NCBI GenBank assembly: GCA_003219345.1
Contig: QHOP01000091.1
Location: 1-37,390 of the forward strand
Length of the DNA stretch: 37,390 bases
From: Verrucomicrobiota bacterium
GTDB lineage: Bacteria > Verrucomicrobiota > Verrucomicrobiia > Limisphaerales > AV2
Reading direction: 5' to 3'
Under the pieces are notes generated by a model. The model was not told where the DNA came from, searched no databases, and saw nothing but the letters and a program-made list of their open reading frames with translations. This document shows, piece after piece, positions 4,576 to 37,379 of this stretch (within the stretch, counting starts at the first letter, position 1; each line of letters begins with the position of its first letter). Both the position numbers and the translations under genes were made by a program.

Positions 4576-4582
4576 AGGAGGA

Positions 4583-5698: not shown

Positions 5699-5793
5699 AA
5701 TTCAGCGGCAACACGCGGGAGTTCTTTGCCCTGAGCGAACCCGGAGCGTCGAGTGTTTCATCATCTTATTTTGACAACAGAAGCAAAGTTTTG

Positions 5794-13189: not shown

Positions 13190-13762
13190 TTACTCGTTGA
13201 TACCCCAGCGAGGGATTCCGACAGGACGGTTGAGGATCGCTTGCAGACAAGGCGTGAGCGCTGAGGCTCTCTTGTTTAAGTCCGTGAGCGGTGACGCCGG
13301 TTGCGGCGCGACAAAACCTGAAGCAAAAAACGCAAGCTGGTTTCGAGCTGCCGCCGCTTGAAGGTAAGCGTACGCCATTGAATACGACGGCAGACAACCG
13401 GTCGGACTGCCAATCAAAGCCGCCAGCGCGGCGTCGCGATCGGTTCGGCTGGCCAAAGATTTATCCAACCATGCTTTGACCACTGGAGGGGGCTCGCTTG
13501 CCCACGCCGATGCGACGATGATCAGGTCGGCGACGGCGGCTACTTCGACCGCCTCCCGCGCGAAGCGCTCGTCGGGTAGTTGGTCGAACTGGCACCAACT
13601 GCATTGGATATCGACGGTATGGTTCAGTTTGTCGAGCAGATGCGAACAAAGCTGCTTCGCGTGGTTCAGCGCGGCTGCGCTGTCAAAGGCGACCACGACT
13701 GAAAACGGTTCGGTGGATTGCACAAGCAGTTTCTGCCGAAGGGGAGCGGGAAGGGTATTCAT
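13190..13762 (-). CDS. Hypothetical protein, paralog A of a tandem pair
   Basis: 190 aa. It aligns by eye with the neighbouring ORF: PFSVVVAFD / PYSLVVVFD, DIQCSWCQFDQL / DIECNWWQFDDL, ADLIIVAS / ADMVMIVCA, VKAWLDKSL / IKVWVEMWL, and DAALAALIG / DTALVAMVG. Confidence 0.6.
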   Translation of the reverse strand: MNTLPAPLRQKLLVQSTEPFSVVVAFDSAAALNHAKQLCSHLLDKLNHTVDIQCSWCQFDQLPDERFAREAVEVAAVADLIIVASAWASEPPPVVKAWLDKSLASRTDRDAALAALIGSPTGCLPSYSMAYAYLQAAAARNQLAFFASGFVAPQPASPLTDLNKRASALTPCLQAILNRPVGIPRWGINE

Positions 13763-13837: not shown

Positions 13838-14533
13838 TTATTTGGCTATAAGTTGACCCGGACCACGACAGTTGGCTTCCCCATAGTTGGCATAGGCTGA
13901 CTGCTCATGGCGCGGGCGTGTGCCGACCGTTTTCATGTTCACCCTGCCCCGGCGTGGCGATGGCCCGTGGCGAAGAATTTCCTCGATGAGTGGCATCACG
14001 GTTTTCGCATGAGCAACGATGGCTTCAATCGAATCGGTTGGCGTCTCTTTTGCTAACCGGAATAAGGCAGGAAAGAAGTTCATGCCAGTTTCTCGCGCCA
14101 CATGCTCCAGGTAGGAATGCACTGCGGTCGTCGGTCGATTTTGCCTGTTTGCTACTCCAACCATCGCGACCAGCGCGGTGTCTTGTTCGCCCTTTTTCGC
14201 CAGCCACATTTCAACCCAAACCTTGATCGAGGAAGGCAACTCTTCGCTTTTAGCACAGACGATCATTACCATGTCCGCGTGTCCCGCAACTTTAGCGGCT
14301 TCTGCGCCTTGTTTGTTCTGAGTTAGGTCGTCAAATTGCCACCAGTTACATTCGATGTCGAAGTCGTCACCGCCTCGCTTGGCTAGACGAGAGTAAATCT
14401 TGACTAAATGGGAGTAAATTTGGACCGCCTCTTGGCGGGCGACCAAGTCATCAAAAACCACAACCAGGGAATATGGCTTCGCAACATCGGACAGGAGCTT
14501 CAGCTCCGGAGGTTCGAGTGGTAATGCATTCAT
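13838..14533 (-). CDS. Hypothetical protein, paralog B of a tandem pair
   Basis: About 231 aa from the Met at 14533 (MNALPLEPPE), which is preceded by GGAGA. The ORF is open to 14587. Homology to 13190-13762 is as listed for that feature. Confidence 0.6.
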   Translation of the reverse strand: MNALPLEPPELKLLSDVAKPYSLVVVFDDLVARQEAVQIYSHLVKIYSRLAKRGGDDFDIECNWWQFDDLTQNKQGAEAAKVAGHADMVMIVCAKSEELPSSIKVWVEMWLAKKGEQDTALVAMVGVANRQNRPTTAVHSYLEHVARETGMNFFPALFRLAKETPTDSIEAIVAHAKTVMPLIEEILRHGPSPRRGRVNMKTVGTRPRHEQSAYANYGEANCRGPGQLIAK

Positions 14534-14815
14534 AGGTTGTCTCCAAATTAAGCGCCTGAGTCCTTTCCGCTCCACCCCGGTTGGCAAAAATTCACCCTTT
14601 TTTGCCGCCGGTCTGGCCGACGTTAAAAAAGCAGCCCATCACCCTCGCCTTTCACTCGGGGGCACTCGCAATACCGAATTGAGCCCTCCAAACGGATTCT
14701 CCACCTTTTCTTGACACCGGGGGGTCCGGCTTCCAGTGGCCATCCACAATCAAGCAATACTCGTACGTGTCTGGCGCGAGGGTCAGATCCTTCATCCACT
14801 GACCCCGCATTCGCC

Positions 14816-15499
14816 TTAACCCGCCGCTTGACCTTCCACCCAGCGCACGGCGTGGCGGATCAGTTCCGCAGCGGTCTGCAGGTTGAGCTTCTGCTTGATG
14901 TTCAACCGATGGACTTCGACCGTCTTGGCGCTCAGGTGTAGCTGGACGGCGATCTCTTTGGTGCCTTTGCCCTGGCCGATCAGTTGAAACACCTCGAATT
15001 CGCGATCCGTGAGCTTTTCGACCGGCGAACCGCCGGCGTCGCCGCGTCGGCCGGAAAAGATCTCCAGGATTTTCGCCGACATTTTTTCGCTCACATAAAT
15101 CTGGCCGTTCAAGACCTGGCGGATCGCCAGCATCAATTTCTTACCGCCCTCCTGCTTCATGATGTATCCGCGGCCGCCGGCCCGCAGCACGCGCTCGGCG
15201 TAAAGTGATTCGTCGTGCATGGAAATGACGAGCACGGCTAGTCCAGGTAGAAGCGCTTGAACGTCTTTGATGAGTTCCAAACCATTTTTCCCCGGCAACG
15301 TAATGTCGGCGAGAACCAGGTCCGGCTTCAAGGCATTGATTTTTGCAATCGCTTCATTCGCGTTTTCGGCTTCACCGCAGACGGACAAATCCGCTTCGTT
15401 ACCGATGAGTTGCGCCAGCCCTTCACGCATCATCGGATGATCATCCAGGATAAGGATGCGCTTCCTGGCGACCGGTGACGATTTTTTCTTCCCGCTCAT
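14816..15499 (-). CDS. NarL/LuxR-family two-component response regulator
   Basis: About 227 aa from the Met at 15499. The receiver domain reads RILILDDHPMMREGL...DLVLADITLPGKNGLELIK. The C-terminal LuxR HTH reads LTDREFEVFQLIGQGKGTKEIAVQLHLSAKTVEVHRLNIKQKL. The start overlaps the kinase stop (ATGA). The longer 331-aa ORF extension is Arg-rich and runs across the kinase gene. Confidence 0.9.
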   Translation of the reverse strand: MSGKKKSSPVARKRILILDDHPMMREGLAQLIGNEADLSVCGEAENANEAIAKINALKPDLVLADITLPGKNGLELIKDVQALLPGLAVLVISMHDESLYAERVLRAGGRGYIMKQEGGKKLMLAIRQVLNGQIYVSEKMSAKILEIFSGRRGDAGGSPVEKLTDREFEVFQLIGQGKGTKEIAVQLHLSAKTVEVHRLNIKQKLNLQTAAELIRHAVRWVEGQAAG

Positions 15500-16629
15500 A
15501 GATCGCTTTTGAACAGGCAGGCCACGAGCATTCCTCTGCCGTTGGCCCGACGGATTTCGAGCGTGGCCCCAATCATGCCAGCGCGGTATTTCATAATACG
15601 CAATCCCATACCGCTCGTTTGCTCCGGCTTCACCACAAACCCGCGACCATCGTCGATCACAGTAAGGCTTGCTTGATTGCTTTGCGCCGTCAGCCGTACA
15701 GCGATTTGCCGGGCCTTGCCGTGCTTGATGGCGTTGTTGATGGCCTCTTGCGCGATGCGGTAAAGGTGCGTGGCGGATGCATGATCGCGCACCAGCACAG
15801 GCTGGGGACATTCAAAGCCGCAGGCGACGTGAAACAATTTTTCGGTGTTGGACGCCAGCTCCTGCAAGGCCGACATCAGGCCGTTGGATTCGACGTCCAC
15901 GGGCGAAAGTCCGCGCGCCAGCATCCGCGTATCGCCGATGGCGGCGCGCACGCCCTCGGCAATTTTGGCGGCTTGTGCCGCTTCGGCTTTGGATTTTCTG
16001 GAAAGGTTTTGTTCCAACACTTCGCTCATCAACTCGATGCCCGCCAGTTGCTGGCACAAGCCGTCGTGCAAATCCTGGCCGATGCGGCGCTGCTCCAGTT
16101 CGCTGATTTGCAGGACTTCTTTCTCCAACCGCTTACGGTCGCTGATGTCACGCACGAAACCGGTGAACAGCCGTTTGTGCGCCAGCCGCACTTCACTGAC
16201 GGACAAATCCATCGGGAAAACCGTGCCGTCCTTGCGCAGGCCAACCACTTCGCGCCCGATGCCGATGATTCTGGCCCGACCGGTGCGGAGATAATTCGCC
16301 AGGTAACCATCATGCTCGTCGCGATACAGCGTCGGCATGAGTACTTTGACATTTTTGCCAACGACCTCCTGCGCCTCGTATCCGAAAATCTTTTCCGCCG
16401 CCGGGTTGAGCGACTCGATGATGCCGCGCTCGTCGATGGTGATAATTCCTTCGACCGCTGTTTCGAGAATGGCGCGCAGGCGTTCTTCCCTGTCGCGCAA
16501 CGCGGCTTCGGCCAGTTTGCGGCGAACGGTCATCTCATCGCTCGACTGCTGGCCAGCTGAGGGGCCAGGTTCCGCGGCCTTGCGCCGTTCGAGCGACTCG
16601 GCCTTGGCGTGCTTCGCGTGGTCGGTCAT
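15496..16629 (-). CDS. Cytoplasmic PAS-domain sensor histidine kinase (HisKA_3 / HATPase_c)
   Basis: 377 aa. It has a PAS segment (RLRAILETAVEGIITIDERGIIESLNPAAEKIFGY), the H-box QDLHDGLCQQLAGIEL and an ATPase region (EAINNAIKHGKA...DDGRGF...GMGLRIMKYRA). No TM segments are evident. Confidence 0.9.
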   Translation of the reverse strand: MTDHAKHAKAESLERRKAAEPGPSAGQQSSDEMTVRRKLAEAALRDREERLRAILETAVEGIITIDERGIIESLNPAAEKIFGYEAQEVVGKNVKVLMPTLYRDEHDGYLANYLRTGRARIIGIGREVVGLRKDGTVFPMDLSVSEVRLAHKRLFTGFVRDISDRKRLEKEVLQISELEQRRIGQDLHDGLCQQLAGIELMSEVLEQNLSRKSKAEAAQAAKIAEGVRAAIGDTRMLARGLSPVDVESNGLMSALQELASNTEKLFHVACGFECPQPVLVRDHASATHLYRIAQEAINNAIKHGKARQIAVRLTAQSNQASLTVIDDGRGFVVKPEQTSGMGLRIMKYRAGMIGATLEIRRANGRGMLVACLFKSDL

Positions 16630-16761: not shown

Positions 16762-17646
16762 TTACGCCGCCAGCTTCAATTGTCCGCGAAACTCCGTCGG
16801 CGACTGGCCGAGGATCTTCTTGAAGACGCGATTAAAGTGTGTGAGCGATTGGAACCCCACTTCATAAGCGATTTCGCTGATGCGCAGGTTCGGGTTCAGT
16901 AAAAGGCCTTTGGCTTTTTCGATGCGCACACGCGAAACGTAGTCGGTGAAGTTCACACCGGTTATCTTCTTGAACATCTTGCAGAAGTAAAACGTGCTCG
17001 TATTGACCGCCTTCGCGACCTGGCCGAGCGACAAATCCTCACCCTGGTGTTCACGGATAAATCCCTTTGCCTTCGCGATCACCGGCGGTTCGGCATTTTC
17101 CTGCCGCACAACAATCTGATTGCTCAACATCGAAATATGCTGCGCGAAGATCGCCAGCAACTTCACCATTGCGTCGTGTTCTTGCTTTGATAGCACCCGT
17201 GTATTGAAGAAGGCGGCGCGGAGTTGCGACTCATCTACTTCCACGCCCCATTCACGCGCGAGTTTCAATGTGCGCTGAAATTGCGTTTCGGTGGGTCGCT
17301 TGCGAAAGACCTGGCCAGTTTGCAGATAGCCGATCAGTTTGTCGCCCAGCCGCAGAGGCACGGCAGTGTCGCACAATCCCAACTGGCAGGTGACGGTCTG
17401 CGGTTCGCGAGTGGCAGTCTCGTGGAGTTCTTGTTGGGTTTGCAGGCAGGCGGCGCAGGCACGACTCTTTTGCGCCATAAACGCGCAGAACGGATTTTCC
17501 TTCCGCCGGCCGTGGTGCGGCAACTGCCACGATTCGACGGGCCGCAAGGCGACCGGCAGTCGGGTGGTTTCGCTGAAGGCGCGTTCGTAATCCTGGTAAA
17601 TCTCTGAGTTCGCCAGTGTCTCGGCCAGATTATTTTCGCTGTTCAT
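16762..17646 (-). CDS. AraC-family transcriptional regulator with N-terminal PocR-type sensory domain (copy 1)
   Basis: About 294 aa from the Met at 17646. The Cys-rich PocR-like core is NPFCAFMAQKSRACAACL...TCQLGLCDTAVPLRLGDKLIGYLQTGQV. The C-terminal AraC HTH pair is STFYFCKMFKKITGVNFTDYVSRVRIEKAK...ISEIAYEVGFQSLTHFNRVFKKILGQSPTEFR. Confidence 0.85.
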   Translation of the reverse strand: MNSENNLAETLANSEIYQDYERAFSETTRLPVALRPVESWQLPHHGRRKENPFCAFMAQKSRACAACLQTQQELHETATREPQTVTCQLGLCDTAVPLRLGDKLIGYLQTGQVFRKRPTETQFQRTLKLAREWGVEVDESQLRAAFFNTRVLSKQEHDAMVKLLAIFAQHISMLSNQIVVRQENAEPPVIAKAKGFIREHQGEDLSLGQVAKAVNTSTFYFCKMFKKITGVNFTDYVSRVRIEKAKGLLLNPNLRISEIAYEVGFQSLTHFNRVFKKILGQSPTEFRGQLKLAA

Positions 17647-17822
17647 ATCGATCGCTTTCGTTGTCGTCGCCAAAACCAAATTTGTTCTGGTGAGACCAAT
17701 ATCGGCAAAGCAGCGAAAACTCACAATTGGGGGGCTCCCTGATTGTGCTTGAGGGAAATGAACTAACCTGGCTAAGGAAAATCCTTAGCCGACCGTGCAC
17801 TGGACCCGCGAATGAATACCCA

Positions 17823-18344: not shown

Positions 18345-18757
18345 GTTGCAAAATTATGACACGTCTCGGCTGTCCGCTTCCCGTTATTTGGCAAGAATTC
18401 ACCCTCGGTTGCCGCGCGTTTAACGTGTATCGTTACGCGGCCATCGAACATAGGCTGGCAATTCAGAGGGCGCTGTTTTAGAGTCGTGCGACGATGATTC
18501 CGTTCGCCAAACACGGCAGGCGAGGCACCCGCACTACCTCTTGGGGAAATCAGCGAGCCGCGACTTTGCGGGGGCGGACAGCGCCGTTTCGGCGGGCGCG
18601 GCGGCGAGGACGGCGGGCTTTGTCCATTTCCGCGATCATGCGGGCTTCCAGCAAAGCGCGAGGCGAGGCAAACGCGATGGGGTGCGTGCGTTCGTATTCG
18701 AATATGTCCCGCAGCCATTCCTCATCGGTCAACTTTTTTTGAGCGACTGCTTTCACG

Positions 18758-19387: not shown

Positions 19388-19621
19388 GCTTTCGCGTAAA
19401 GCTTGCTGTAAACGTGAAATAAGTCCAACGCGCCGTAGCTGTGCCCGGCGGCGCTGGCGAGCATGGCGTAGCAGGCTTTGTAAGCATGTCCGCACAACCC
19501 CCGTTCCACTTTTCGCAAAAAATGTTCAACCACTGCCAATAAAGGTTTAGTCCGCTTCAACCGGATTGCCGATGCTTTGCGCGACGGTTGAAACGAAAGA
19601 ACACGCAAAAGAATAGTTGTT

Positions 19622-21172
19622 ATGAACATGTTGAAAAGAACCTCGATACACGCCGGCGTTACGGCCTTGGCCGCCGTGTTGCTCGCATTGTCCGCCAGGC
19701 AGTTGTCCGCCGCGGCAAATCAAGCCGCCGCGCCATCCACCGGCGCGAAGCTTGTTGATCCCGACGTTACCGGCGTCGAGACGGCAGTGCTCACGCAGGC
19801 CCCGAATGTGCCGCCGCCGATCACACGAAAAAAGCCCGCCAAGGTCATCGTGACCGTGGAAGTCAGAGAAGTCACGAAGCGCCTGGCCGATGGAGTCGAG
19901 TATGTGTTCTGGACATTCGGCGGCGATGTGCCGGGCAGCTTCATTCGTGTCCGCGAGGGCGACCAGGTGGAATTTCACTTGAACAATCATCAGAACAACA
20001 AGATGCCGCACAACATCGACCTGCACGCGGTCACGGGACCGGGCGGGGGCGCCGCGTCGTCGTTCACCGCCCCGGGGCATTCCTCGCAATTCTCGTTCAA
20101 GGCGCTCAATCCGGGACTCTACCTTTATCACTGCGCGACCGCTCCGGTGGGAATGCACGTCGGCAACGGCATGTATGGTTTGATTCTCGTCGAGCCGAAA
20201 GAAGGTCTGCCACCGGCGGACCGGGAGTATTACGTGATGCAAGGCGAGTTTTACACCACCGGCAAATACGGCGACGAAGGGTTGCAGGGGTTCGACATGA
20301 ACAAGGCCACCGATGAACGACCGACCTACGTTGTCTTCAACGGCGCGGTCGGCTCGCTCGTCGGCGACAAGGCGCTTACCGCAAAAATCGGAGAGAAAAT
20401 TCGTCTGTTCGTCGGCAATGGCGGACCGAACCTCGCTTGCTCGTTCCACGTCATCGGCGAAATCCTCGACACGGTTTATCCGGAGGCCGGCACGCAGCCG
20501 ACGCACAACGTGCAAACGACCGTTATTCCTCCTGGCGGATCGGCGATTGTGGAATTCAAAGTCGAAGTGCCCGGCACGTACATCCTGGTGGATCACGCGT
20601 TGTTTCGCGCGTTCAACAAGGGCGCGCTAGGCATGTTGAGAGTGGATGGTCCGCAAGACCTGCTCGTTTATTCCGGCAAAGAAGTGGACGCCGTGTATCT
20701 CGGCAAAGCGGCGGAGGCGGGTACCGACGCCGAAAAGAAAGTCACGGCGCTGAAGGCGGAGGTTGCGCAGGAAATCAAGAGCAACCCGAAAATTGCCGGG
20801 CTGACGAAAGAAATCCAGATCGAGAAAGGCAAGGGCGTCTATATGCAAACCTGCTTCGTTTGCCACCAGCCCGAAGGCGAGGGTTTGCCCGGCCAGATTC
20901 CGCCGCTGGCCAAGTCTGACTTCCTCGCCAGTCTTGCCAAGGAAGATTACATCCGCGGGGTCTTGCTGGGGCGTAGTGGCCAAATCGTCGTCAACGGCAA
21001 GAGTTACAATGGCGTCATGACGCCGTTGAACTACCTGACGGATGAACAAATCGCCAGTGTGCTGACCTACGTTCGCAGCAGTTGGGGCAACTCCGGCGAC
21101 GCGGTGACGGTGGCGGAAGTCGGCAAATTGCGCAACGAAGTAGGCTCGCCGCCGCCCAATCCATATGAATAG
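19622..21172 (+). CDS. nirK: Copper-containing nitrite reductase NirK with C-terminal class I cytochrome c domain
   Basis: 516 aa with a signal peptide. The type 2 Cu region is [17 protein letters not shown]. The type 1 Cu ligands lie in [20 protein letters not shown]. The C-terminal heme domain has CFVCHQPEG and a distal Met region (NGVMTP). Confidence 0.92.
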
Positions 21173-22049
21173 ACGCGCAATTAAATCCGAAGCGCCGCGT
21201 GGCCGCCAACTGACTTGGAAAAGGCGAAAAGTGAACACTCGAAGGCGCCTTTCCATCACTGCGCTGCTCCTGCTGGCCGGCGGAGCGCTTCAGGGTTTAG
21301 GGCAAAAGCTGCCCGGTCCCGCGTTGTCGGGCAAACCCCCTGTCGGCATGGCTCTGATTTCCGACGGCGTATATCAACCGTTATTTCGCGCGGAAAACGA
21401 TCCGAAGGAAATTCCGGTCTCAGCGGTTTATCTCGATGTGTATCCGGTCACCAACGGCGACTTCATCGAATTCGTCCGTGCGAACCCGCGTTGGCGTCGC
21501 TCGCAAGTGAAACGAATCTTCGCCGATGAATCGTATCTGAAAAATTGGTCGGACGATCTCGACCTTGGCGCGAACGCCTCCGCAAACGCGCCGGTGACTT
21601 TTGTGTCGTGGTTCGCCGCGAAAGCCTACGCGCAATGGAAAGGTAAACGTTTGCCGACCGTGGCCGAATGGGAATACGCTGCGTCTGCGAGCCCCACGCG
21701 GCCCGACGGCGAGAACGACGGCGAATTCAAACGTCAGGTGCTTGAATGGTACTCCACCCCGGCCTCGGCGCAGCTTGCGCCGGTCGGTTCCAGTCACGCG
21801 AATTTCTGGGGAATTCATGACTTGCACGGATTGGTGTGGGAGTGGGTCGCCGATTTCAACACGGCGATGGTGACCGGCGACGCGCGCGGCGACACCGGGC
21901 TGGAACGCGATTTGTTCTGCGGAAGCGGGTCGCAGGGCGTGAAGGACACAGACAATTTCCCCGCCTTCATGCGCTACGGCTTCCGCAGCAGCCTCAAGGC
22001 CGATTACTGCGTTCACAATCTTGGCTTTCGTTGCGCCGAAGATTTATGA
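21165..22049 (+). CDS. nirV: Formylglycine-generating-enzyme (SUMF1) family protein, NirV-like
   Basis: 294 aa. It shows FGE-sulfatase-type motifs ([71 protein letters not shown]). It lies immediately downstream of nirK, as nirV does in Rhodobacter. The start is uncertain: ATG 21165 (8-nt overlap with nirK) or GTG 21231, which precedes a signal-like segment. Confidence 0.8.
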
Positions 22050-22582
22050 AACTGCGCCTGGCCATGTTCTTCGTCGCGCTGGCAGCCACGGGTCTCGCCG
22101 GCTGTGCGACGCACTTGCCCGGCCACGCGGCCAAAACTTCGTGTTGCGCTAAAGCGGAACCGCCGACGCCGTTCACCGACAAATCGCTCTATCAACTCGA
22201 CTCGCTGTGGACGACCGATGAGAATAGGCAAATCAAATTAAGCGAACTGAGCGGGCGCCCGCAGATCGTCGCAATGTTCTTCGCTAACTGCCAGATCGCC
22301 TGCCCGATCATCGTGAACGATATGAAACGCATTGAAGCCGCGTTACCCGCGGACGTGCGCGCACGAGTCGGCGTCGCTCTCGTCTCCTTCGACGGCAAAC
22401 GCGACACGCCCGCCGCGCTGGCTGATTACCGACACACGCGCCACCTGCCGGCGGAACGCTGGACGCTCCTGCGCGGAAGGCCGGACGACGTGCTGGAATT
22501 GGCGGCGTTGCTTGGCATCAAATACAAAGAGGACGCTCGTGGCCAGTTCGCGCACTCGAACGTCATCACCATCCTGAAATAG
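22046..22582 (+). CDS. SCO1/SenC-family thioredoxin-fold copper chaperone (lipoprotein)
   Basis: About 178 aa from the ATG at 22046, which overlaps the nirV stop (ATGA). The lipobox is LAATGLAGC, the CxxxC copper motif is FFANCQIACP, and a conserved His lies in QFAHSNVITIL. Confidence 0.85.
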   Translation: MKLRLAMFFVALAATGLAGCATHLPGHAAKTSCCAKAEPPTPFTDKSLYQLDSLWTTDENRQIKLSELSGRPQIVAMFFANCQIACPIIVNDMKRIEAALPADVRARVGVALVSFDGKRDTPAALADYRHTRHLPAERWTLLRGRPDDVLELAALLGIKYKEDARGQFAHSNVITILK

Positions 22583-22637: not shown

Positions 22638-23543
22638 TCAACCCGTCGCCGCTTGTTTGCGAAATTCCCGCGGTGACACTCCGACCAGGTTCTTGAAGAC
22701 AGGGTTGAAATGCGTGAGCGATTGAAAACCCGCTTCAAAGGCGAGTTCGCTGACACGCACGTTGGGGTCGAGCAACGACTTCTTGGCCCGCTCCAAACGC
22801 ACGCGCGAGAGGTATTCGCTGAATTTGATACCGGTCGCCTTCTTGAACAGTTTGCAGAAGTAGAACGTGCTGAGGTTCAGCGCCCGCGCCGTTTGGCCAA
22901 GGGAAAGGTCCGTGGCGCAATTGGCTTCGATGTAAGCCCTGGCACGCGTGATCAGAGGCGGTTCGGTGCTCCGCGCTTGCACGACGGCATGGTTGCTCAC
23001 GATGGCAAGGTGTTTGGCGAAGATGCCCAGGAGCTTCACTGCGGCGGCGTATTGTTTGTCGGTCAACGACGGCGGTTGCGCCGCCCAGCCTTCGTCCTTC
23101 GCACTCGCTCGGGGCACCCCGCGCGACGCGTCCTTTTTTCGTGAAGCCGCTGCCGGAACCTGGTCCCGGACTCGGCCAACCATTTGCAGGATGCCTACCA
23201 GGTGTCGGCCCAGCGCGAGTGGGATGGCCGCGCCGCAGTGACACGGTTCGCCCGCGACAATCGGTCCCCGGATTGGCAAGTGCATCGCGATTCGTTTCTC
23301 CGTGCGCCGGCAGCACACACAGGAGCATTTTTTTCTTCCGGGCAATCTGCAAAGCGGATTGGACTCGCTGGAAGCGCCGCCCGGCAAAGGCCACGAATCC
23401 GTAGGCCGCAGCTTAATCCCCATACCTGTGAGGTCTTTGAAAGCGCGTCTGTAATCGCGGAAGATTTTGGAACCGAGCAGCGCTCCAATCACCGTATTGC
23501 CTATCGACGGCGGGTTGGAAGGTATGGGCGCAACCGTCTTCAC
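22638..23543 (-). CDS. AraC-family transcriptional regulator with PocR-type sensory domain (copy 2)
   Basis: 301 aa and a paralog of 16762-17646. Motifs are NPLCRLPGRKKCSCVCC...PCHCGAAIPLALGRHLVGILQ and the AraC HTH STFYFCKLFKKATGIKFSEYLSRVRLERAK...VSELAFEAGFQSLTHFNPVFKNLVGVSPREFR. It is divergent from the heme-porin operon. Confidence 0.85.
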   Translation of the reverse strand: MKTVAPIPSNPPSIGNTVIGALLGSKIFRDYRRAFKDLTGMGIKLRPTDSWPLPGGASSESNPLCRLPGRKKCSCVCCRRTEKRIAMHLPIRGPIVAGEPCHCGAAIPLALGRHLVGILQMVGRVRDQVPAAASRKKDASRGVPRASAKDEGWAAQPPSLTDKQYAAAVKLLGIFAKHLAIVSNHAVVQARSTEPPLITRARAYIEANCATDLSLGQTARALNLSTFYFCKLFKKATGIKFSEYLSRVRLERAKKSLLDPNVRVSELAFEAGFQSLTHFNPVFKNLVGVSPREFRKQAATG

Positions 23544-23629
23544 GCCGTATATTTGGCATCTTATCGGCCGGCGTGCTCACCATTGGTTGCCAAAAACAAG
23601 CACTGTTAGCAGACGAGAACCGGCTTCAA

Positions 23630-23769
23630 CCATTCGCTGCAATAGGCGATGGCAAAAAAGGGTGAGTTATTGGCAATAGAGGTGGAGCAGTTCCCTGTCA
23701 TTCATGGTATCCAAACAAAATCCTGATGACGTTCCGATGGTCAAAAACTAGCGCGGTCGCGCGAAGTTA
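23630..23769 (+). repeat. Conserved ~140-bp leader/regulatory element, copy 1 (upstream of the heme-porin operon)
   Basis: It is near-identical to 30594-30732 (about 9 differences by eye). The 66-nt perfect core is AGTTATTGGCAATAGAGGTGGAGCAGTTCCCTGTCATTCATGGTATCCAAACAAAATCCTGATGAC. It contains the inverted repeat TATTG-G-CAATA and a 5' hairpin CCATTCGC...GCGATGG. An ATG follows 8 nt downstream. Confidence 0.9.
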
Positions 23770-23889
23770 AAAAGTTATGAAAAGCCATTCGCAACATCGG
23801 ACCTTCTCCCAAGTGTGTTCGTGTTTTGCCGGGCTGGCTTTTCAGGGTTCCCAAGAAAGCAAGCACTCCAACCAACAGAAGGGACAACA

Positions 23890-25188
23890 ATGAAGAACAC
23901 ACCAAGACTCATGCCGCTTGGCCTGGCTGTGATCACAAGCGCCCTGGCGATGGTGCCGATCAACGGCTGGGCCATCGCCAACTGGGCCAGGAAGTACAAC
24001 GTGGATTGCGCCACGTGTCACTCGCCAGCCGTGCCGCGATTGAATGAGTTCGGACACCAGTTCCGCAAAATGGGCTACCGGATGGATACGGAAATCCAGG
24101 CCGGCAAGCCGGAAGCCTACAAGGAAATTGGGAATTTTCTGTCCGTGCGGTTTCGCACCGGCTACGCGGCCGAGCGTTTCAGCGACCTGCAAACGGCCGG
24201 CAGTGGGTTTAACTCGTTCCGCACCCGCAACGGTTTCAGGGCGCCCGATGTCACTGTGTTTTACTCAGGTGCGTTGACGAAGAATCTGTCGCTGTTTACA
24301 GAAATTGAAGTCGCGGACGTCGATGAAACCGAGCTACAGGTGTTCGGCGAGTGGTTTAGTGGCAACCCGGACCATTACTTCACCGCGCGCATTGGACAAA
24401 TGCACACGTTGTCCCGTATTGGCTGGGCGGGGTTTGATCGTCCGACCGGCATAACCACGCCCGATGCGCTTGCTGCGGCAAAGTTGACCACCAGTCCGGT
24501 GTCGTTCAGCGTTGGCGCAGACCAACGAGGTGTGGATTTGGCTTATTCGTTTACGCCGGAGAGCCGCGCGATTGTCGGCGTTTACAATGGCGTGAACCAG
24601 CAGGGGTCAGGAATTGCGGGCAACGGCGCCGGATTTGGCGACAATGACAACGCCAAAGACGTGCTGGTGGCCTTTGAACAGATGTTAGGTGAATCTGGAT
24701 TCACACTGTTCGGATATTACGGAACGTGGGATCAGGCGGCGGGCACGGTAGTGAACGGAGTTCCTTTGCCAGACAACAACAAGTTCACCGAGTTCAACTT
24801 TCTTCGTGCCGGCGCGACTGCCTCCTGGGTGTTTAACCTGTTTGACCCGAAGACGGTCGGCAGTAGTGAATTGCAAGCGGGCTATATGTTCGCCAAAGAC
24901 TTTTACCCCAAGTCCTATCCGGTCGGCCCTACGTTCAACGGCAAAGACCGGAACGGCCAGGCGTTCTGGATCGGAGTCGAGCAACGTCTGCCGCACAGTT
25001 CAGCGGTGTTCTACCGCTACGATCACGTATCGCGAAGCAACGAGGCCAGTGGGGGTGAACGACAGCGTCATGCCCTTGGAGCGGTTTACACGTATGAACA
25101 ATATCTGAGGCTATCTCTGGAGGGATTCTGCTACGACCAGAACTCCGACTCCTTTGGCGGTCTTCTGCAAGCGATGTTCAATTACTAA
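23890..25188 (+). CDS. Outer-membrane beta-barrel protein with N-terminal monoheme CxxCH motif (fused cytochrome-porin, Cyc2-like architecture)
   Basis: About 432 aa from the ATG at 23890. It has a signal peptide (LGLAVITSALAMVPINGWA) and a single heme motif right after it (WARKYNVDCATCHSPAVPRLNEFGHQFRKMGY). The remaining ~380 aa show alternating, Gly/aromatic-rich beta-strand composition and end in an aromatic residue (LLQAMFNY), as OM barrels do. Confidence 0.7.
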   Translation: MKNTPRLMPLGLAVITSALAMVPINGWAIANWARKYNVDCATCHSPAVPRLNEFGHQFRKMGYRMDTEIQAGKPEAYKEIGNFLSVRFRTGYAAERFSDLQTAGSGFNSFRTRNGFRAPDVTVFYSGALTKNLSLFTEIEVADVDETELQVFGEWFSGNPDHYFTARIGQMHTLSRIGWAGFDRPTGITTPDALAAAKLTTSPVSFSVGADQRGVDLAYSFTPESRAIVGVYNGVNQQGSGIAGNGAGFGDNDNAKDVLVAFEQMLGESGFTLFGYYGTWDQAAGTVVNGVPLPDNNKFTEFNFLRAGATASWVFNLFDPKTVGSSELQAGYMFAKDFYPKSYPVGPTFNGKDRNGQAFWIGVEQRLPHSSAVFYRYDHVSRSNEASGGERQRHALGAVYTYEQYLRLSLEGFCYDQNSDSFGGLLQAMFNY

Positions 25189-30232: not shown

Positions 30233-30470
30233 TACGGCCGCGGTGATTAACGATGCGTCCATCGCAACCTCCTCGCCCGTCGGACAGGCCAGTGTGAATG
30301 CCCGCGGAGAAGATTGCGGCCCGCGCGACTACCGTCATGTGTGTGCGGACAGATATTTCTTTCCACACAGAGGCCATTCTTCACCATGGAATTACTGAGC
30401 GGTCCCTCGCATAAACGACACCCAGAGACTGTCGAACCGTTGTTTCCCCCCACCCTGACCCGAAATTGAC

Positions 30471-30525
30471 TCAGTCCCGATCTTGCGCGCTTGCGTGAAT
30501 TGACAAACGCGCAACCTTTTCTTGC
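30471..30525 (+). repeat. Hairpin-containing ~55-bp extragenic repeat, copy A
   Basis: TCAGTCCCGATCTTGCGCGCTTGCGTGAATTGACAAACGCGCAACCTTTTCTTGC is about 85% identical by eye to 34623-34676. Its stem is TTGCGCG/CGCGCAA around GAATTGACAA, and TTTTCTT follows. Confidence 0.75.
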
Positions 30526-30540
30526 CATGTACTGGGGAGT

Positions 30541-30580
30541 CCCTTGGATAAGGCGACAGTCACCGACTCTTATCCAAGGG
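30541..30580. repeat. Perfect 12-bp inverted repeat (stem-loop)
   Basis: CCCTTGGATAAG (30541-30552), a 16-nt loop, then CTTATCCAAGGG (30569-30580). It extends by 4 more base pairs (GGAG/CTCC) after one mismatch. It sits between the two repeat elements of the 505-bp intergenic region. Confidence 0.85.
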
Positions 30581-30593
30581 CCTCCTCAGTAAG

Positions 30594-30732
30594 CCATTCG
30601 CTGCACAGGCGATGGCAACCAACGGTTAGTTATTGGCAATAGAGGTGGAGCAGTTCCCTGTCATTCATGGTATCCAAACAAAATCCTGATGACCTTCCGA
30701 TGGTCAAAGACTAGCGCGGTCACGCGAAGTTA
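30594..30732 (+). repeat. Conserved ~140-bp leader/regulatory element, copy 2 (upstream of the cytochrome c / porin / diheme operon)
   Basis: See copy 1 (23630-23769). It ends 5 nt before the ATG at 30737. Similarity continues through the ATG (ATGAAGTACC versus ATGAAAAGCC). Confidence 0.9.
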
Positions 30733-30736
30733 GCAG

Positions 30737-31114
30737 ATGAAGTACCGACAAATTAAAGCTACTAAAAATATGAACCGACCCAGCTCCTTGAAATCACGTC
30801 TGTGGACCGGCGCCAGCGTCGCGGTGCTTGGAGCGCTCCTTTACGCTCTGTCCAGCGTTTTCGTTCCCGGCGCAGGTGCCAAAGCGGAAAAGAAAACAGA
30901 AAAAAGGGTCGAGAAAAAGCCGGAGAAGAAAAAGCTCAGCGGAGCGGAGCTGTATTCGATGCATTGTAACAGGTGCCACCCCGAACGTTATCCAACGGAG
31001 AGGACCGCGGCGCAATGGAAAACCATCCTGCTCCACATGCGCGTGCGGGCGAACCTTCCTGCCGAACAGTCGCAGATGATCCTCAAATACCTGCAGGACA
31101 ACAGCGGACGATAA
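30737..31114 (+). CDS. Membrane-anchored monoheme c-type cytochrome
   Basis: 125 aa (alternative Met at codon 12). It has an N-terminal TM/signal anchor (LWTGASVAVLGALLYALSSVFV), a Lys/Glu-rich linker (KAEKKTEKRVEKKPEKKK) and a single heme motif CNRCHPERYP followed by WKTILLHMRVRANL. Confidence 0.8.
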   Translation: MKYRQIKATKNMNRPSSLKSRLWTGASVAVLGALLYALSSVFVPGAGAKAEKKTEKRVEKKPEKKKLSGAELYSMHCNRCHPERYPTERTAAQWKTILLHMRVRANLPAEQSQMILKYLQDNSGR

Positions 31115-31150
31115 GCGGCTGAACCCGGATAAAATGGCAAAAACGTTAGC

Positions 31151-32530
31151 ATGAAAACACGTTCCTTCGCGTTGGGATGCGCGTGCATATGCTGTGCGCT
31201 AGTGGTTCCGCTACCGGTCGGGACAGCGGCCGCTATCGACGACCAGCAGTTCAACGAATTGAAAGACCTAGTCACCAAACTAGGCCAGAAAATCGAAACA
31301 CAGGACCAACGGATCGAGCAACTGGAAAAAACACATGCGCAAGATGCGCAGGTCCACGCGCAAGATCAGAAGACTCATGAACAGGACCAGCAGAAAATCC
31401 AGGAACTGCAGCAAAAGCTGGGAGAAACACAACAAGCAGTCTCGAACGTCCAAACGGCGGCGATAGCGGTCCCAGTGGAACCGCTGCCTCGGGTGCCGCT
31501 GGACGAGGCCACCGTCAACCATAACTTCTCCATTCTCGGTGATGCTGAGTTTCAATACGCCAAGACCTCGGGCCAGCATGGGACATTTTTGTTCGCGGAT
31601 TTTGCGCCCATTTTCCTATATCGGGGCGGAGAGAAGGTCCTGTTCGAGGCCGGTTTCGATTTTGGTTTGCAGAATAACGCTCCGAACAGTCCCGGGGCCA
31701 CTACGACCATCAATCTAAGCTTCGCCCAATTGGATTACCTGATGAACGATTATGTGACATTGGTGGCGGGAGACATGGTGCTGCCTCTCGGCACTTATAG
31801 CGAGCGGACCGCGGGCTGGTTGAACAAAATTCCTGATGATCCATTGCCTCGCGACCTGCTGCCAGGTGCGGGCGTGGGGGCGCAGTTACGAGGGGCTGTT
31901 CCGCTGGGCGAGAGCGGAAAGTTAATCAACTATTCCGTGTGGGGTGTGAATGGGGCAAGCTCGGCGGATGGCACCGGCAATGCCGATCAACTGGATTTGG
32001 GTGGGAACGTGGGCCTGCGGTCGGACAATGCGGTGGCCAATTTGCACGGCAAACCGAGCGGCGGCGCGCGCGTGGGGTGGTTTATGCCTTTCAAGCCCCA
32101 CTACGATCTGGAACTGGGCCTTTCGGGTCAATCGGGGGAATGGGATAACGCGGGACAGCATCTGTGGTCCGCGGGCGTGCTGGACGCCAGCCTGCACCTG
32201 GGATCGACCGTTGAGGTCAAGGGCGAATATATCCGCAGTTGCTATGGAAGCGACGATCACGGGAACGTCCGACCCGAGGGATGGTGGTTGCAGGCCAGCT
32301 ATAAGCTCGTTGGATTAAATCTGGATTGGCCGGTTATCAATAACCTGGAACTGGTGAACCGGTATGACAGTATCCACGATGGCCTGGGCACTCGGACCCG
32401 GCGGTATACTCTGGGCTATATCTACTATTTTTCGAATACGCTGCTGTTCGAAGGAGGTTATGAATTTCTCCACAGCAATGATCCAACTCAGAAAGACCAG
32501 TTGATTTTCCAACTTTCCTATGGGTTTTGA
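31151..32530 (+). CDS. Outer-membrane porin with N-terminal coiled coil (phosphate-selective porin O/P-like organisation)
   Basis: 459 aa with a signal peptide. It has a Gln/His-rich heptad coiled coil (LEKTHAQDAQVHAQDQKTHEQDQQKIQELQQKL) followed by a beta-strand-rich region. It ends in the barrel terminal signature LIFQLSYGF. Confidence 0.7.
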   Translation: MKTRSFALGCACICCALVVPLPVGTAAAIDDQQFNELKDLVTKLGQKIETQDQRIEQLEKTHAQDAQVHAQDQKTHEQDQQKIQELQQKLGETQQAVSNVQTAAIAVPVEPLPRVPLDEATVNHNFSILGDAEFQYAKTSGQHGTFLFADFAPIFLYRGGEKVLFEAGFDFGLQNNAPNSPGATTTINLSFAQLDYLMNDYVTLVAGDMVLPLGTYSERTAGWLNKIPDDPLPRDLLPGAGVGAQLRGAVPLGESGKLINYSVWGVNGASSADGTGNADQLDLGGNVGLRSDNAVANLHGKPSGGARVGWFMPFKPHYDLELGLSGQSGEWDNAGQHLWSAGVLDASLHLGSTVEVKGEYIRSCYGSDDHGNVRPEGWWLQASYKLVGLNLDWPVINNLELVNRYDSIHDGLGTRTRRYTLGYIYYFSNTLLFEGGYEFLHSNDPTQKDQLIFQLSYGF

Positions 32531-34569: not shown

Positions 34570-34622
34570 AGTTCAATTCGCTTCAGTTGATGATTCATTC
34601 ATCAACTTGACAAGAAACTGCC

Positions 34623-34676
34623 TCAGTCCCGGTCTGCGCGCTGCGCGTGAATTGGCAAACGCGCAACATTTCTTGC
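34623..34676 (+). repeat. Hairpin-containing ~55-bp extragenic repeat, copy B
   Basis: TCAGTCCCGGTCTGCGCGCTGCGCGTGAATTGGCAAACGCGCAACATTTCTTGC. It has a perfect 7-bp stem TGCGCGT (34642-34648) / ACGCGCA (34659-34665) with a 10-nt loop. It lies between the radical SAM stop and the start of the small membrane protein gene. Confidence 0.75.
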
Positions 34677-35624: not shown

Positions 35625-36191
35625 TTAGTTTCCGATAAACTCGTGTTCCTGCTCGCGCACGACGAGTACCGGACATGTTGCGCGGCGGATAACATTTTCA
35701 GCCACGCTCCCCATGAAGACATGTTTCAAGCCCGTGCGACCGTGCGTGGAGATAATGATGAGGTCGCTCTCCAGCTTTTTGGCGCAATCAACGATCTCCA
35801 CTACTTCCTGACCGATCCGGACGAGCGTCTGGGCGACGGCCTGTTGTTGAATTTCTGTCGCCGCGAGCTGACCGAGTTGCTTTTCCGCGCTTTTCCGCAA
35901 ATCGGCTTCGATGAGCGGAAAGTCTATAGCGCCGAACTCCGGGCCGGCAGAGTAGTTGACATGCACGACGTGCAACAGCGTGATTGTTGCGCCGAACTGT
36001 TTGGCGAACGGAACGGCGTATCGCAGCGCCTTTTTCGAGCAGTCCGAAAAGTCAATCGGCACCAGAATGTCTTTCAAGCTAAACGGAGTCGGTTTGTTGT
36101 AGGTGTTCTGGCTGGTGCCAAGGATGGACTCGTCCTTGCGATTCAGCTCGACGATTACCTGGCCGCGTTTAGTTGCAGGTTTGATTTTCAT
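35625..36191 (-). CDS. Universal stress protein (UspA family), copy 1
   Basis: About 188 aa from the Met at 36191. Motifs are ILVPIDFSDCSKKALRYAVPFAKQFGATITLLHVV, IIISTHGRTGLKHVFMGSVAENVIRRATCPVLVV and a C-terminal REQEHEF. The ATG overlaps the upstream USP stop (ATGA). Confidence 0.85.
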   Translation of the reverse strand: MKIKPATKRGQVIVELNRKDESILGTSQNTYNKPTPFSLKDILVPIDFSDCSKKALRYAVPFAKQFGATITLLHVVHVNYSAGPEFGAIDFPLIEADLRKSAEKQLGQLAATEIQQQAVAQTLVRIGQEVVEIVDCAKKLESDLIIISTHGRTGLKHVFMGSVAENVIRRATCPVLVVREQEHEFIGN

Positions 36192-36838
36192 AAGTTCCTT
36201 TTTAGTTGACCGTGGTTGGTTGGACAAACCGCTGTTTCCGTTTTTCCGTTGAATTGTCTTAGGGACCCCGGTGAGTTGAGGGATTGCCCAATGAATTCGG
36301 GTTCGTTCTCCGGCACCATCAAAACCGGGCAAGGCGCGTGGCGGACGACGCGTTCTACCGTGCTGCCCAATGGGGCATGGTCCAGCGCGGTATAGCCGCG
36401 AGTGGCGAGGATGATCAGATCCACCTCGAGTTCTTTCGCGACCTTTGCGATTTCGTCGAATGCGACGCCGCTGCGAACCAATGTATCGCACCGGCATTTC
36501 GAATCGAGCTGCCGCCGTGCGATGGCGTCGAGGTGCGCCTGGCTCCGCTTCAAGAGGAGTGGATCAGGTTCCGTGCGAACAACGGGGCCGTACCCAAAGT
36601 CCGCGGTGTAAGGGACCGACTCGACAACGTGCAACAACACGAGCCGGGCGCCGAATCGCCGAGCGAAAGACTTCGCGTAGCGCAATGCCTTTTGCGATGG
36701 CGCGGAAAAATCAGTTGGCAGAAGGATCTTGTTGATCTTTAGGGCGGGAGGGAGCGCGGCCTTCACAGCACCGCGCCCTAACGCCAAGCGCGTGTGCGTT
36801 CCGGCCCTCGAAGGGTTGCTGTTAATTGTCGCAGTCAT
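36188..36838 (-). CDS. Universal stress protein (UspA family), copy 2
   Basis: About 216 aa from the Met at 36838 (alternative Met at 36883). Motifs are ILLPTDFSAPSQKALRYAKSFARRFGARLVLLHVV and IILATRGYTALDHAPLGSTVERVVRHAPCPVLMV. It has a ~30-aa C-terminal extension beyond the EPEFIG end shared with its paralogs. Confidence 0.8.
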   Translation of the reverse strand: MTATINSNPSRAGTHTRLALGRGAVKAALPPALKINKILLPTDFSAPSQKALRYAKSFARRFGARLVLLHVVESVPYTADFGYGPVVRTEPDPLLLKRSQAHLDAIARRQLDSKCRCDTLVRSGVAFDEIAKVAKELEVDLIILATRGYTALDHAPLGSTVERVVRHAPCPVLMVPENEPEFIGQSLNSPGSLRQFNGKTETAVCPTNHGQLKRNL

Positions 36839-36869
36839 ATTCGCCACCTGACTTGGGAGCGTTTCTGTG

Positions 36870-37379
36870 TCAGACAAATTCATGTTCCTGTTCGCGCACG
36901 ACGAGCACCGGACAGGGCGCATGGCGGACGACGCGTTCGGCTGTGCTGCCCAGCACCGCGTGCTTCAGGCCCGTGTAGCCATGAGTGGAAATAACAATCA
37001 GGTCCACCTTCAACCCGCGCGCTGCGTCGCAGATCTCCTGGAATGGTTTTCCGAACCGAACCAGCGTTTTCTCGATCAGACGCGGTTTGATCGCCTCGCG
37101 TTTGCAAAGCAAATCGAGCTTTGTCCGGAAGACCCTGGCAACCCTGTCGTTCTCCGTGAGCAAAGGAAAATTGGCGAAGTCCGGCGTAGCGATCGGTTCG
37201 ACGACGTGAAGCAAAGTAATTTTCGCGCCAAACTGCTCGGCGAACGGCAGCGCATAACGGAGCGCTTTCCCGGCGGGCTCGGAAAAGTCGATAGGCACAA
37301 GGATGGATTTCAGTTTGAGGCGCGCGGGCGTTCGTTCGCTCAGCGCAGCCGTGCCGACAGTCTTTCGCAACATGCCCAC
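36870..37379 (-). CDS. Universal stress protein (UspA family), copy 3
   Basis: 169 aa. Motifs are ILVPIDFSEPAGKALRYALPFAEQFGAKITLLHVV, IVISTHGYTGLKHAVLGSTAERVVRHAPCPVLVV and REQEHEFV. The start is close to the window edge. Confidence 0.8.
   Translation of the reverse strand: MGMLRKTVGTAALSERTPARLKLKSILVPIDFSEPAGKALRYALPFAEQFGAKITLLHVVEPIATPDFANFPLLTENDRVARVFRTKLDLLCKREAIKPRLIEKTLVRFGKPFQEICDAARGLKVDLIVISTHGYTGLKHAVLGSTAERVVRHAPCPVLVVREQEHEFV

Follow-up and report, generated by a model that had tools for sequence, protein, structure and literature searches.

Two operons that lie 7 kb apart in a 37,390-nt stretch of Verrucomicrobiota DNA (contig QHOP01000091.1, hereafter the window) encode different sets of cytochromes and porin-like proteins, and both are preceded by almost the same non-coding sequence of about 140 bp. 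This raises the question of what the repeated element does and how it came to stand in front of both operons. The original prediction, made from the sequence alone, was that of a shared promoter and operator which co-controls the two modules, combined with a structured 5' leader (riboregulator), with a PocR-AraC protein as the candidate binder. In this work, the shared operator and promoter were supported by motif statistics, by five tandem sites in the window and by conservation across species, the binding itself being predicted. The evidence for an RNA leader did not hold. We consider it probable that the 140-bp repeat is a re-used promoter with an AraC-type operator, that it represents one of at least five sites in an electron-transfer and nitrite-reductase regulon, and that it is not an RNA device.

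Copy 1 (positions 23630–23769) and copy 2 (30594–30732), both on the plus strand of a single contig (L001), differ by 8 mismatches and one 1-nt gap. Self-BLAST aligns them with 93.6% identity over 140 nt (E 2e-54), and the longest identical stretch is 66 nt (23665–23730 and 30628–30693). Alignment, repeat search and self-BLAST thus agree with the earlier description of two copies with about nine differences and a 66-nt identical core. The flanks show no DNA similarity past the element in self-BLAST, and the 432- and 459-residue barrel proteins of modules 1 and 2 gave a BLASTP E value of 0.19, i.e., no detectable homology, so the neighbouring coding genes are indeed not duplicates of each other. 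In addition, the repeat search revealed a third, partial copy that had been overlooked, 38 nt on the minus strand (14569–14606, 84%), which forms an inverted pair with copy 1. This partial copy narrows the shared part, which thereby resolves into two direct repeats 21 bp apart.

The operator is composed of two 17-bp direct repeats with 4 bp between them, in a 21-bp register (TGGCAA-N5-GGTGAG, TTAT, TGGCAATAGAGGTGGAG), and each repeat contains a box A (GGCA), 6 bp and a box B (GGTGA). In the aligned copies 1 and 2 and the partial copy (site 3), the blocks GGCAA, GGTGA, TG(G/C)CAA and GGTGGAG are kept. The sequence TATTG-G-CAATA, which had been described as a short inverted repeat, is present but represents the junction of the two direct repeats and not an inverted-repeat operator. 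A weight matrix was trained solely on the six half-sites of copy 1, copy 2 and site 3, all from one lineage; GCAA at positions 3–6 and G-(G/T)-T-x-A at positions 12–16 are invariant in it, and the 6-bp spacer is variable. The maximum scores in 30 mononucleotide shuffles of the window were 18.5 bits for a single half-site and 11.6 bits for a tandem site. Three sites that had no part in the training were found in the window, with 24.6 bits (single) and with 32.0 and 34.5 bits (tandem), and all three are intergenic, facing the genes for PocR-AraC regulator #2, a cyclic nucleotide monophosphate (cNMP)-binding protein and the nitrite reductase NirK.

The operator of copy 1 (23650–23687, plus strand; TGGCAAAAAAGGGTGAG-TTAT-TGGCAATAGAGGTGGAG) reaches 50 bits as a tandem, and that of copy 2 lies at 30613–30650 on the same strand (TGGCAACCAACGGTTAG-TTAT-TGGCAATAGAGGTGGAG). 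Site 3 (14570–14607, minus strand; CGGCAAAAAAGGGTGAA-TTTT-TGCCAACCGGGGTGGAG; 41 bits) ends 37 nt before ATG 14533 of a gene for an unknown 231-residue protein. Site 4 (18377–18414, minus strand; CGGCAACCGAGGGTGAA-TTCT-TGCCAAATAACGGGAAG; 32.0 bits) stops 33 nt short of ATG 18344, where the cNMP-binding gene starts, and site 5 (19513–19550, plus strand; TCGCAAAAAATGTTCAA-CCAC-TGCCAATAAAGGTTTAG; 34.5 bits) lies 72 nt before ATG 19622 of the nirK-cytochrome c gene. The single inverted half-site (23576–23592, minus strand; TGGCAACCAATGGTGAG; 24.6 bits) is located 33 nt upstream of start codon 23543 of PocR-AraC #2. The 17+4+17 layout is common to the five tandem sites, and the presence of the same operator at them implies that at least five promoters within 17 kb form one regulon. 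Two other binding schemes were rejected. A sigma-54 promoter would account for TGGCA, but on sequence inspection the GG-N10-GC spacing fails in every copy. An FNR/CRP-type palindrome does not fit either, as TTG-N-CAA is all that remains of TATTG-G-CAATA in sites 3 and 4, and its spacing is wrong for TTGAT-N4-ATCAA.

The motif is conserved beyond this lineage. A search from an alignment of the PocR-AraC proteins identified 524 relatives in GTDB genomes, nearly all in Verrucomicrobia, and the cross-species scan covered the best 80 of the 524 loci, almost all from Verrucomicrobia subdivision 3, Pedosphaera or Limisphaerales. Sixteen of these 80 PocR-AraC loci contained a tandem site scoring 14 bits or more, against none of their shuffled versions, which reached a maximum of 11.8. 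In 28 loci with a cNMP-binding homolog ahead of the regulator, the 170 nt before it were scanned. Tandem scores of at least 13 bits were found in 7–8 of the 28 loci compared with 0.3% of random windows (binomial p 4e-12), and scores of at least 0 in 16 of them compared with 0.9% (binomial p 4e-26). In locus L084, whose regulator is 66% identical to regulator #1, 82 nt separate an operator (GAGCAATAGAAGTGTAG-CGAA-TGCCAATAAACGGAGAG) from a downstream ortholog (73% identical) of the first gene of module 2; the leader beyond the operator is not conserved there. Furthermore, L007 and L008, with Cyc2 homologs of 82% and 74% identity, contain tandem sites of 18–19 bits, before a radical-SAM gene in L007 and before a multihaem gene in L008, with 21 bp as the best-scoring spacing among the 20, 21 and 22 tried. 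The leader as a whole gave no BLASTN match at the distant Cyc2-like homolog loci L007, L008 and L010, whose upstream regions contain no alignable leader. Two further Cyc2-homolog loci, L024 and L025, have no AraC gene nearby and lie outside the set scanned with the matrix. Targets in other species include pyruvate:ferredoxin oxidoreductase (PFOR) and an ADP-forming acyl-CoA synthetase-type protein, and L018 carries an ortholog of site 5.

Natural variants among closer relatives delimit the constrained part of the element. In L017, whose flanks are 96–97% identical to those of the window, a 128-nt insertion (about 4335–4463) with a 24-bp perfect inverted repeat takes the place of the 5' hairpin of copy 1, and the element is intact from ...AATGGTGAGTTATTGGCAA onward. 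The 5' hairpin is therefore dispensable. Among the orthologs of copy 2 (L012, L015, L016 and L022), L012 has lost 6 nt of the 3' hairpin. L018 and L023, which are about 93% identical, retain the divergent AraC gene and the first ~105 nt of the element, but another operon follows, which encodes a 273-residue multihaem cytochrome and a protein of about 720 residues, as in L007 and L013; identity is 95–97% up to ...AAACAAAATC and 67% thereafter. Taken together, these variants indicate that the constrained part extends from TGGCAA to about AAACAAAATC, some 70–85 nt. Substitutions in the operators of orthologs fall mostly within the spacer between the boxes of the distal repeat. The only core polymorphism among six contigs of the same species is a C-to-G change directly after the proximal half-site in L003 (about 1706; GGTGGAGGAG). 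Just upstream of copy 2, an insert of ~50 nt with a perfect 12-bp stem (CCCTTGGATAAG...CTTATCCAAGGG) was noted at 30540–30590, which is absent from L012 and L016.

A −10-like hexamer lies 19–27 nt past the operator in 10 of the 11 site sequences read. It is the extended form TGgTATCCA in copies 1 and 2 (23705–23713 in copy 1; hexamer at 30671–30676 in copy 2), TAATTT in site 3 (20–25 nt past the site), TGtCATAAT in site 4 and its L018 ortholog (16–24 nt past the site), GATGCT in site 5 and its L018 ortholog, and TAAGTA, GAGTAT, TACATT, TTTAGT and TCTAGT in L007, L008, L084, L070 and L080, respectively. The exception is the cytochrome site of L018, the copy-1 ortholog, which has a weak TGgTATCGA in which TATCGA agrees with 2 of 6 consensus positions. 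None of the sites read has a TTGACA-like −35, and a scan for consensus sigma-70 promoters found none in or near the element. The start codon follows 33–38 nt past the operator in a dozen sites, with distances of 37 nt for site 3, 33 nt for site 4, 33 nt for PocR-AraC #2 (start 23543, a GTG in the window and an ATG in L023) and 34 nt for L007, and with an ATG in the same range in L031, L041, L046, L054, L065, L070, L080 and L105. Moreover, the gene behind site 4 (ATG 18344) has no Shine-Dalgarno sequence and is the clearest such case. Such a constant distance would be expected from leaderless mRNAs with a transcription start ~35 nt past the operator, which suggests that leaderless mRNAs are common in this regulon and lineage.

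Applying the same ~35-nt rule to the two copies places the predicted transcription starts near 23720 and 30683. On this prediction only the last ~50 nt of the element would be transcribed, as the beginning of a 5'-untranslated region (5'-UTR), and the ~90 nt ahead of them would be promoter DNA outside the transcript. In copy 1 the order of parts is the 5' hairpin (23630–23652, plus strand; CCATTCGC-tgcaata-GGCGATGG), whose last 3 nt are within the operator and which lies 5' of the predicted start, then the operator, the predicted core promoter (23688–23720, plus strand) and the shared first ~50 nt of the predicted transcript (23721–23769, plus strand), which include a small hairpin CGCG-gtcg-CGCG. 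In copy 2 the hairpin occupies 30594–30615 and the putatively transcribed part 30684–30732; the transcribed parts of the two copies are 94% identical. The 5' hairpin with its conserved stem exists as had been described (−8.9 kcal/mol, z −2.4), and it is locally stable.

The relation of the element to the genes had been read as an end 5–8 nt before an ATG in each copy, which is correct for copy 2, 5 nt ahead of ATG 30737. The 3' end of copy 1 lies ~120 nt ahead of its gene, the real start of which is ATG 23890 according to gene calls on six independent contigs. ATG 23777, 8 nt past copy 1, opens only a 38-codon open reading frame (ORF; 23777–23893, plus strand) that appears in no gene call, has no Shine-Dalgarno sequence and ends in a TGA overlapping the ATG of the Cyc2-like gene (ATGA); this ORF is probably untranslated. 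The similarity that was thought to run a few codons into the reading frames consists of ATGAA only. Leader peptides within the element were rejected as well: the 25-codon ORF found in copy 1 is interrupted at codon 6 by a stop in copy 2, and a 15-codon ORF (ATGGTATCC...) is altered at both variable positions, with a GTG start in L012 and another tail in L018.

The layout of the operator resembles those of known AraC-family activators. At araI1-araI2 of E. coli araBAD, AraC occupies 17-bp direct half-sites 4 bp apart, of which the proximal one overlaps the −35, and araO2 is a single distant half-site. At the Pm promoter of the Pseudomonas putida TOL plasmid, the promoter-proximal XylS repeat abuts the −35 position, and no consensus −35 is known. 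The XylS sites consist of two 15-bp direct repeats, each with a box A, 6 bp and a box B, 21 bp start to start (PMC5481539). The GGCA-N6-GGTGA of the window, repeated twice in a 21-bp register, is alike, although the boxes are TGCA/GGTA at Pm and GGCA/GGTGA here. Furthermore, the N-terminal domain of the candidate regulators is of the PocR type and not benzoate-binding, the host phylum and the targets are different, several targets appear leaderless, and binding here is predicted. With araI1-I2 the element shares the 17-bp direct half-sites and the 4-bp gap, and the lone half-site at 23576–23592 can be compared with araO2. However, nothing here points to looping, and the half-site is spaced from the start codon of PocR-AraC #2 as a promoter would be, which makes simple autoregulation the more economical interpretation.

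There are two PocR-AraC genes in the window. Regulator #1 (16762–17724, minus strand; Pfam PocR and HTH_18) lies downstream of the cNMP-binding gene and site 4, and regulator #2 (22638–23543, minus strand; Pfam HTH_18/HTH_AraC with a weak PocR match) is divergent from copy 1. They are 41% identical overall, and the identity is visibly higher in the C-terminal helix-turn-helix region. Like PocR of Salmonella (pdu/cob), regulator #1 combines a PocR sensory domain (PF10114, 87 bits; NF047788, 106 bits) with an AraC helix-turn-helix, but its 106 bits compare with an equivalog cut-off of 500, and the targets here are cytochromes, porins and nirK, with PFOR and acyl-CoA synthetase in relatives, not propanediol genes. 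The PocR-AraC family provides the best candidate binder because the two-box direct repeats are AraC/XylS-like and because the motif is conserved before the PocR-AraC operon in many species, which agrees with the binder originally proposed; either or both of the PocR-AraC proteins could bind the operator. The conserved operator before regulator #1's own operon points to autoregulation, so this regulator is probably autoregulated.

We hypothesize that a dimer of a PocR-AraC family activator would bind the two repeats, with regulators #1 and #2, whose DNA-binding domains are similar, as the candidates. The element would comprise, from 5' to 3', a dispensable hairpin palindrome, the 38-bp operator, a core promoter without a −35 and with a −10-like hexamer ~20 nt past the operator, and the first ~50 nt of the transcript. 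The promoter-proximal monomer would abut the −35 position and recruit RNA polymerase, like XylS at Pm and AraC at araI1-I2, and transcription would begin near the two positions predicted above. The operator without the rest of the element would control the 231-residue protein gene, the cNMP/PocR-AraC #1 operon and nirK, and the half-site would control PocR-AraC #2. The whole promoter cassette would have been copied or gene-converted between operons ("promoter reuse"). The repeat, the motif with its statistics and its conservation across species, and the lack of RNA signals are observations; that the element serves activation and not repression, which protein binds it and where transcription starts are inferred. 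The mechanism would be of a known kind, namely an AraC/XylS-type activator-dependent promoter spread by promoter reuse. Putative mobile promoters have been defined (Matus-Garcia, Nijveen and van Passel 2012; PMC3575422) by an identity of 80% or more along 50 nt or more between the upstream regions of non-paralogous genes within the same genome. With 93.6% identity over 140 nt and non-paralogous adjacent coding sequences, the two copies belong to this category, which is purely operational, whereas the copied region here divides into operator, core promoter and 5'-UTR.

The riboregulator of the original prediction would have the whole element transcribed into a ligand-, protein- or small RNA-responsive fold that controls both operons. 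The two small hairpins are real, one stem position of the 5' hairpin changes from U-G to C-G in relatives, and the 50 transcribed nt are near-identical in both copies. On the other side, Rfam gave no match in the window at gathering score, and at E up to 10 there was only a 17.5-bit chance match outside the element. Compared with dinucleotide shuffles, the 140-nt copies show no gain in folding energy (z +0.23 and −0.61), and their minimum-energy folds differ. RNAalifold of six leaders returned a covariation term of +0.25, where one pair of the 3' hairpin keeps a double change and one-sided changes occur elsewhere, although covariation alone has little power at the low sequence variation among the leaders. 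Local stability is confined to the small 5' hairpin, which L017 lacks and which lies upstream of the start predicted ~90 nt inside the element; L012 is without the 3' hairpin, L084 conserves nothing past the operator, and the short ORFs are not conserved (ATG to GTG in L012). All independent lines thus point away from a structured RNA leader, and we regard a riboregulator as very improbable. An even smaller chance, close to negligible, is given to a small mobile or repetitive extragenic palindromic (REP)-type repeat inserted upstream of both operons. The region does attract small hairpin insertions (30540–30590 and the 128 nt in L017), and a second intergenic repeat family exists. But when 185,579 species genomes were scanned for exact occurrences of a 47-mer, a 23-mer and a degenerate 38-mer, the only locus found was L012, the copy 2 ortholog, and a 20-mer scan of JGI metagenomes yielded nine contigs, seven of them orthologs of copy 1 or copy 2. 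L020 and L021, which are 98% identical to each other, were rejected as further copies and represent a chance 20-mer in GC-rich coding DNA. A plasmid collection contained no match to the element. No terminal inverted repeats were found, the ends CCATTCGC... and ...GCGAAGTTA not being complementary, and no target-site duplication, as the flanks of copies 1 and 2 share no duplicated bases. In the collections scanned, which included no closed genome of this organism, the element is not a dispersed repeat and stands only upstream of cytochrome operons; the presence at many unrelated loci that had been named as counter-evidence to a shared regulatory sequence was not encountered there.

The remaining two alternatives accept the operator and concern what surrounds or binds it. 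The element may be a neutral by-product, a duplication or gene-conversion tract that includes the operator and whose length and near-identity are functionless beyond 38 bp. The selective conservation of non-coding sequence claimed earlier was not supported, because orthologous leaders are 92–97% identical and the flanking coding DNA is 94–98% identical. Within the leaders, operators of orthologs are 92–95% and core promoters 94–100% identical. Over the first 91 nt, copies 1 and 2 of the window differ at 6 positions and orthologs at 5–7, and in a second lineage L012 (copy 2 position) and L023 (copy 1 position) differ at 1, although these two may come from different genomes. Moreover, lineage-specific states are common to both copies (T or C in the hairpin, TATCCA or TATCGA). 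Paralogs that are closer than orthologs and share lineage states are a signature of gene conversion or repeated copying, so copies 1 and 2 appear to owe their near-identity to a recent event of either kind, which fits concerted evolution. At the copy 1 position, the element precedes different operons in different lineages. The transcribed part falls to 67% in L018/L023, which speaks for this alternative. However, the core promoter, from the operator end to about +1, keeps its 94–100% identity, whereas the neighbouring intergenic DNA has only 82% in the comparisons with L023 and L012, two of the four made with orthologs. This alternative, which we consider improbable, largely overlaps promoter reuse and differs from it only for the last 50 nt. 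Less improbable, though still unlikely, is the same operator and promoter with another binder, e.g., the NarL/LuxR-type response regulator (14816–15811), which is encoded together with its PAS histidine kinase immediately upstream of site 3. The motif would then be four phased GGYRA boxes (GGCAA, GGTGA, GGCAA, GGTGG) ~10.5 bp apart, all of which begin with GG and are phased by one helical turn, and no AraC gene accompanies the sites of L007 and L008 in the DNA examined. Boxes A and B strictly alternate and differ in every site, though, which fits one monomer with two different helix-turn-helix motifs. In addition, many species retain the motif at the very operon that encodes PocR-AraC. The heptamers of NarL-type regulators (TACYYMT) look different from it.

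Promoter reuse under a PocR-AraC activator remains the preferred explanation, and several observations count against it. Besides the sites of L007 and L008 that lack an AraC gene in the stretch examined, L013 and L014 carry PocR-AraC orthologs with no strong tandem site, and the motif is seen at no more than about half of the cNMP/AraC loci. The sequences assigned as −10 hexamers match weakly: TATCCA is without the final T, and either C or G occupies its fifth position. The matrix was derived from a single lineage, and mononucleotide shuffling was the only kind applied to the window. Finally, the response regulator gene that adjoins site 3 is a possible source of another binder, and the 94% identity of the ~50 transcribed nt between the copies makes a function for them possible.

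The window comes from a soil Verrucomicrobium: identical proteins are encoded on soil metagenome contigs, and a 95%-identical relative is the metagenome-assembled genome 'Verrucomicrobia bacterium AV4'. The first gene of module 1 encodes a 432-residue protein with one CATCH motif just past the signal peptide and a body of porin length behind it. It has no match among Pfam and NCBIfam models, and a search with this single Cyc2-like protein gave no confirmed relative in GTDB genomes; from its layout it is likely a Cyc2-like fused cytochrome-porin. It is followed by genes for a 375-residue unknown protein, a monohaem cytochrome c, a Rieske protein, cytochrome b and a 514-residue multihaem cytochrome. 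Module 2 encodes a 125-residue CNRCH cytochrome, the 459-residue protein, whose N-terminus is a coiled coil ahead of a porin-like body, and a 289-residue cytochrome c. With a fused single-haem cytochrome-porin (Cyc2-like) in module 1 (23890–25188) and a separate single-haem cytochrome of 125 residues and 459-residue porin-like protein in module 2 (30737–32530), the latter resembles a split version of the start of module 1, the proteins being without detectable homology. In the nirK set (19622–22582, plus strand), the copper nitrite reductase carries a cytochrome c fused at its C-terminus and scores 354.6 bits with TIGR02376, above the equivalog cut-off of 296.3; a NirV-like gene with an FGE-sulfatase domain and an SCO1/SenC gene come next. 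Nitrite reduction appears to be co-regulated with the cytochrome/porin modules, since the operator precedes this set.

Other features of the window were recorded alongside. Site 3 precedes the second of two adjacent paralogs of unknown function (13190–13762 and 13838–14533, minus strand), which have no Pfam or NCBIfam match and share N-terminal motifs (...VVVFD...C.WWQFD.L). The second intergenic repeat family (30456–30525 and 34608–34676, plus strand; 84.5% over 71 nt) has a hairpin TGCGCGT-gaattgRcaa-ACGCGCA followed by a T-rich tract, and on the minus strand it shows weak half-site-like matches (TGGCAAGAAAAGGTTGC / TCGCAAGAAATGTTGCG; 10–15 bits as tandem). One of its copies is just upstream of leader copy 2, and the other is flanked by a radical-SAM gene on one side and small genes adjoining FeoA on the other. 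Three consecutive paralogous ATPase genes of the type II secretion system/type IV pilus kind (2974–7551, minus strand; families D1, D4 and D5) and a run of universal-stress-protein paralogs (35625–37379, minus strand; family D2) are ordinary gene families unrelated to the element.

The signal to which this regulon responds may be suggested by its sensors. Three cysteines (C80, C90 and C93 in regulator #1 numbering) are invariant in the PocR domains of both regulators and their orthologs, and they may bind a metal, an Fe-S cluster or haem. Together with the list of targets, they suggest, speculatively, a redox or oxygen signal. A modest chance may be given to the broader idea that the PocR-AraC proteins of Pedosphaerales/Limisphaerales are redox-, oxygen- or iron-sensing master regulators, which would do an FNR-like job on an AraC scaffold. 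Their largely leaderless regulon would include the Cyc2-like fusion with a bc-type complex, the second cytochrome/porin module and copper nitrite reductase, with PFOR and ADP-forming acyl-CoA synthetase in relatives, and operons would join it by cassette copying. The motif and the regulon appear to be undescribed, with no literature search made on the motif itself. To our knowledge, nothing is known about the regulation of extracellular-electron-transfer/iron-oxidation-type genes and nirK in uncultured soil Verrucomicrobia. For these genes, the present analysis supplies a concrete and testable operator motif together with a candidate regulator, and it predicts which of them are co-expressed. 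The two copies would also provide a clean natural example of an operon wired into a regulon via a copied whole promoter cassette. If the cysteine-rich PocR domain is indeed a redox or oxygen sensor, it would represent a new sensory use of the AraC family.

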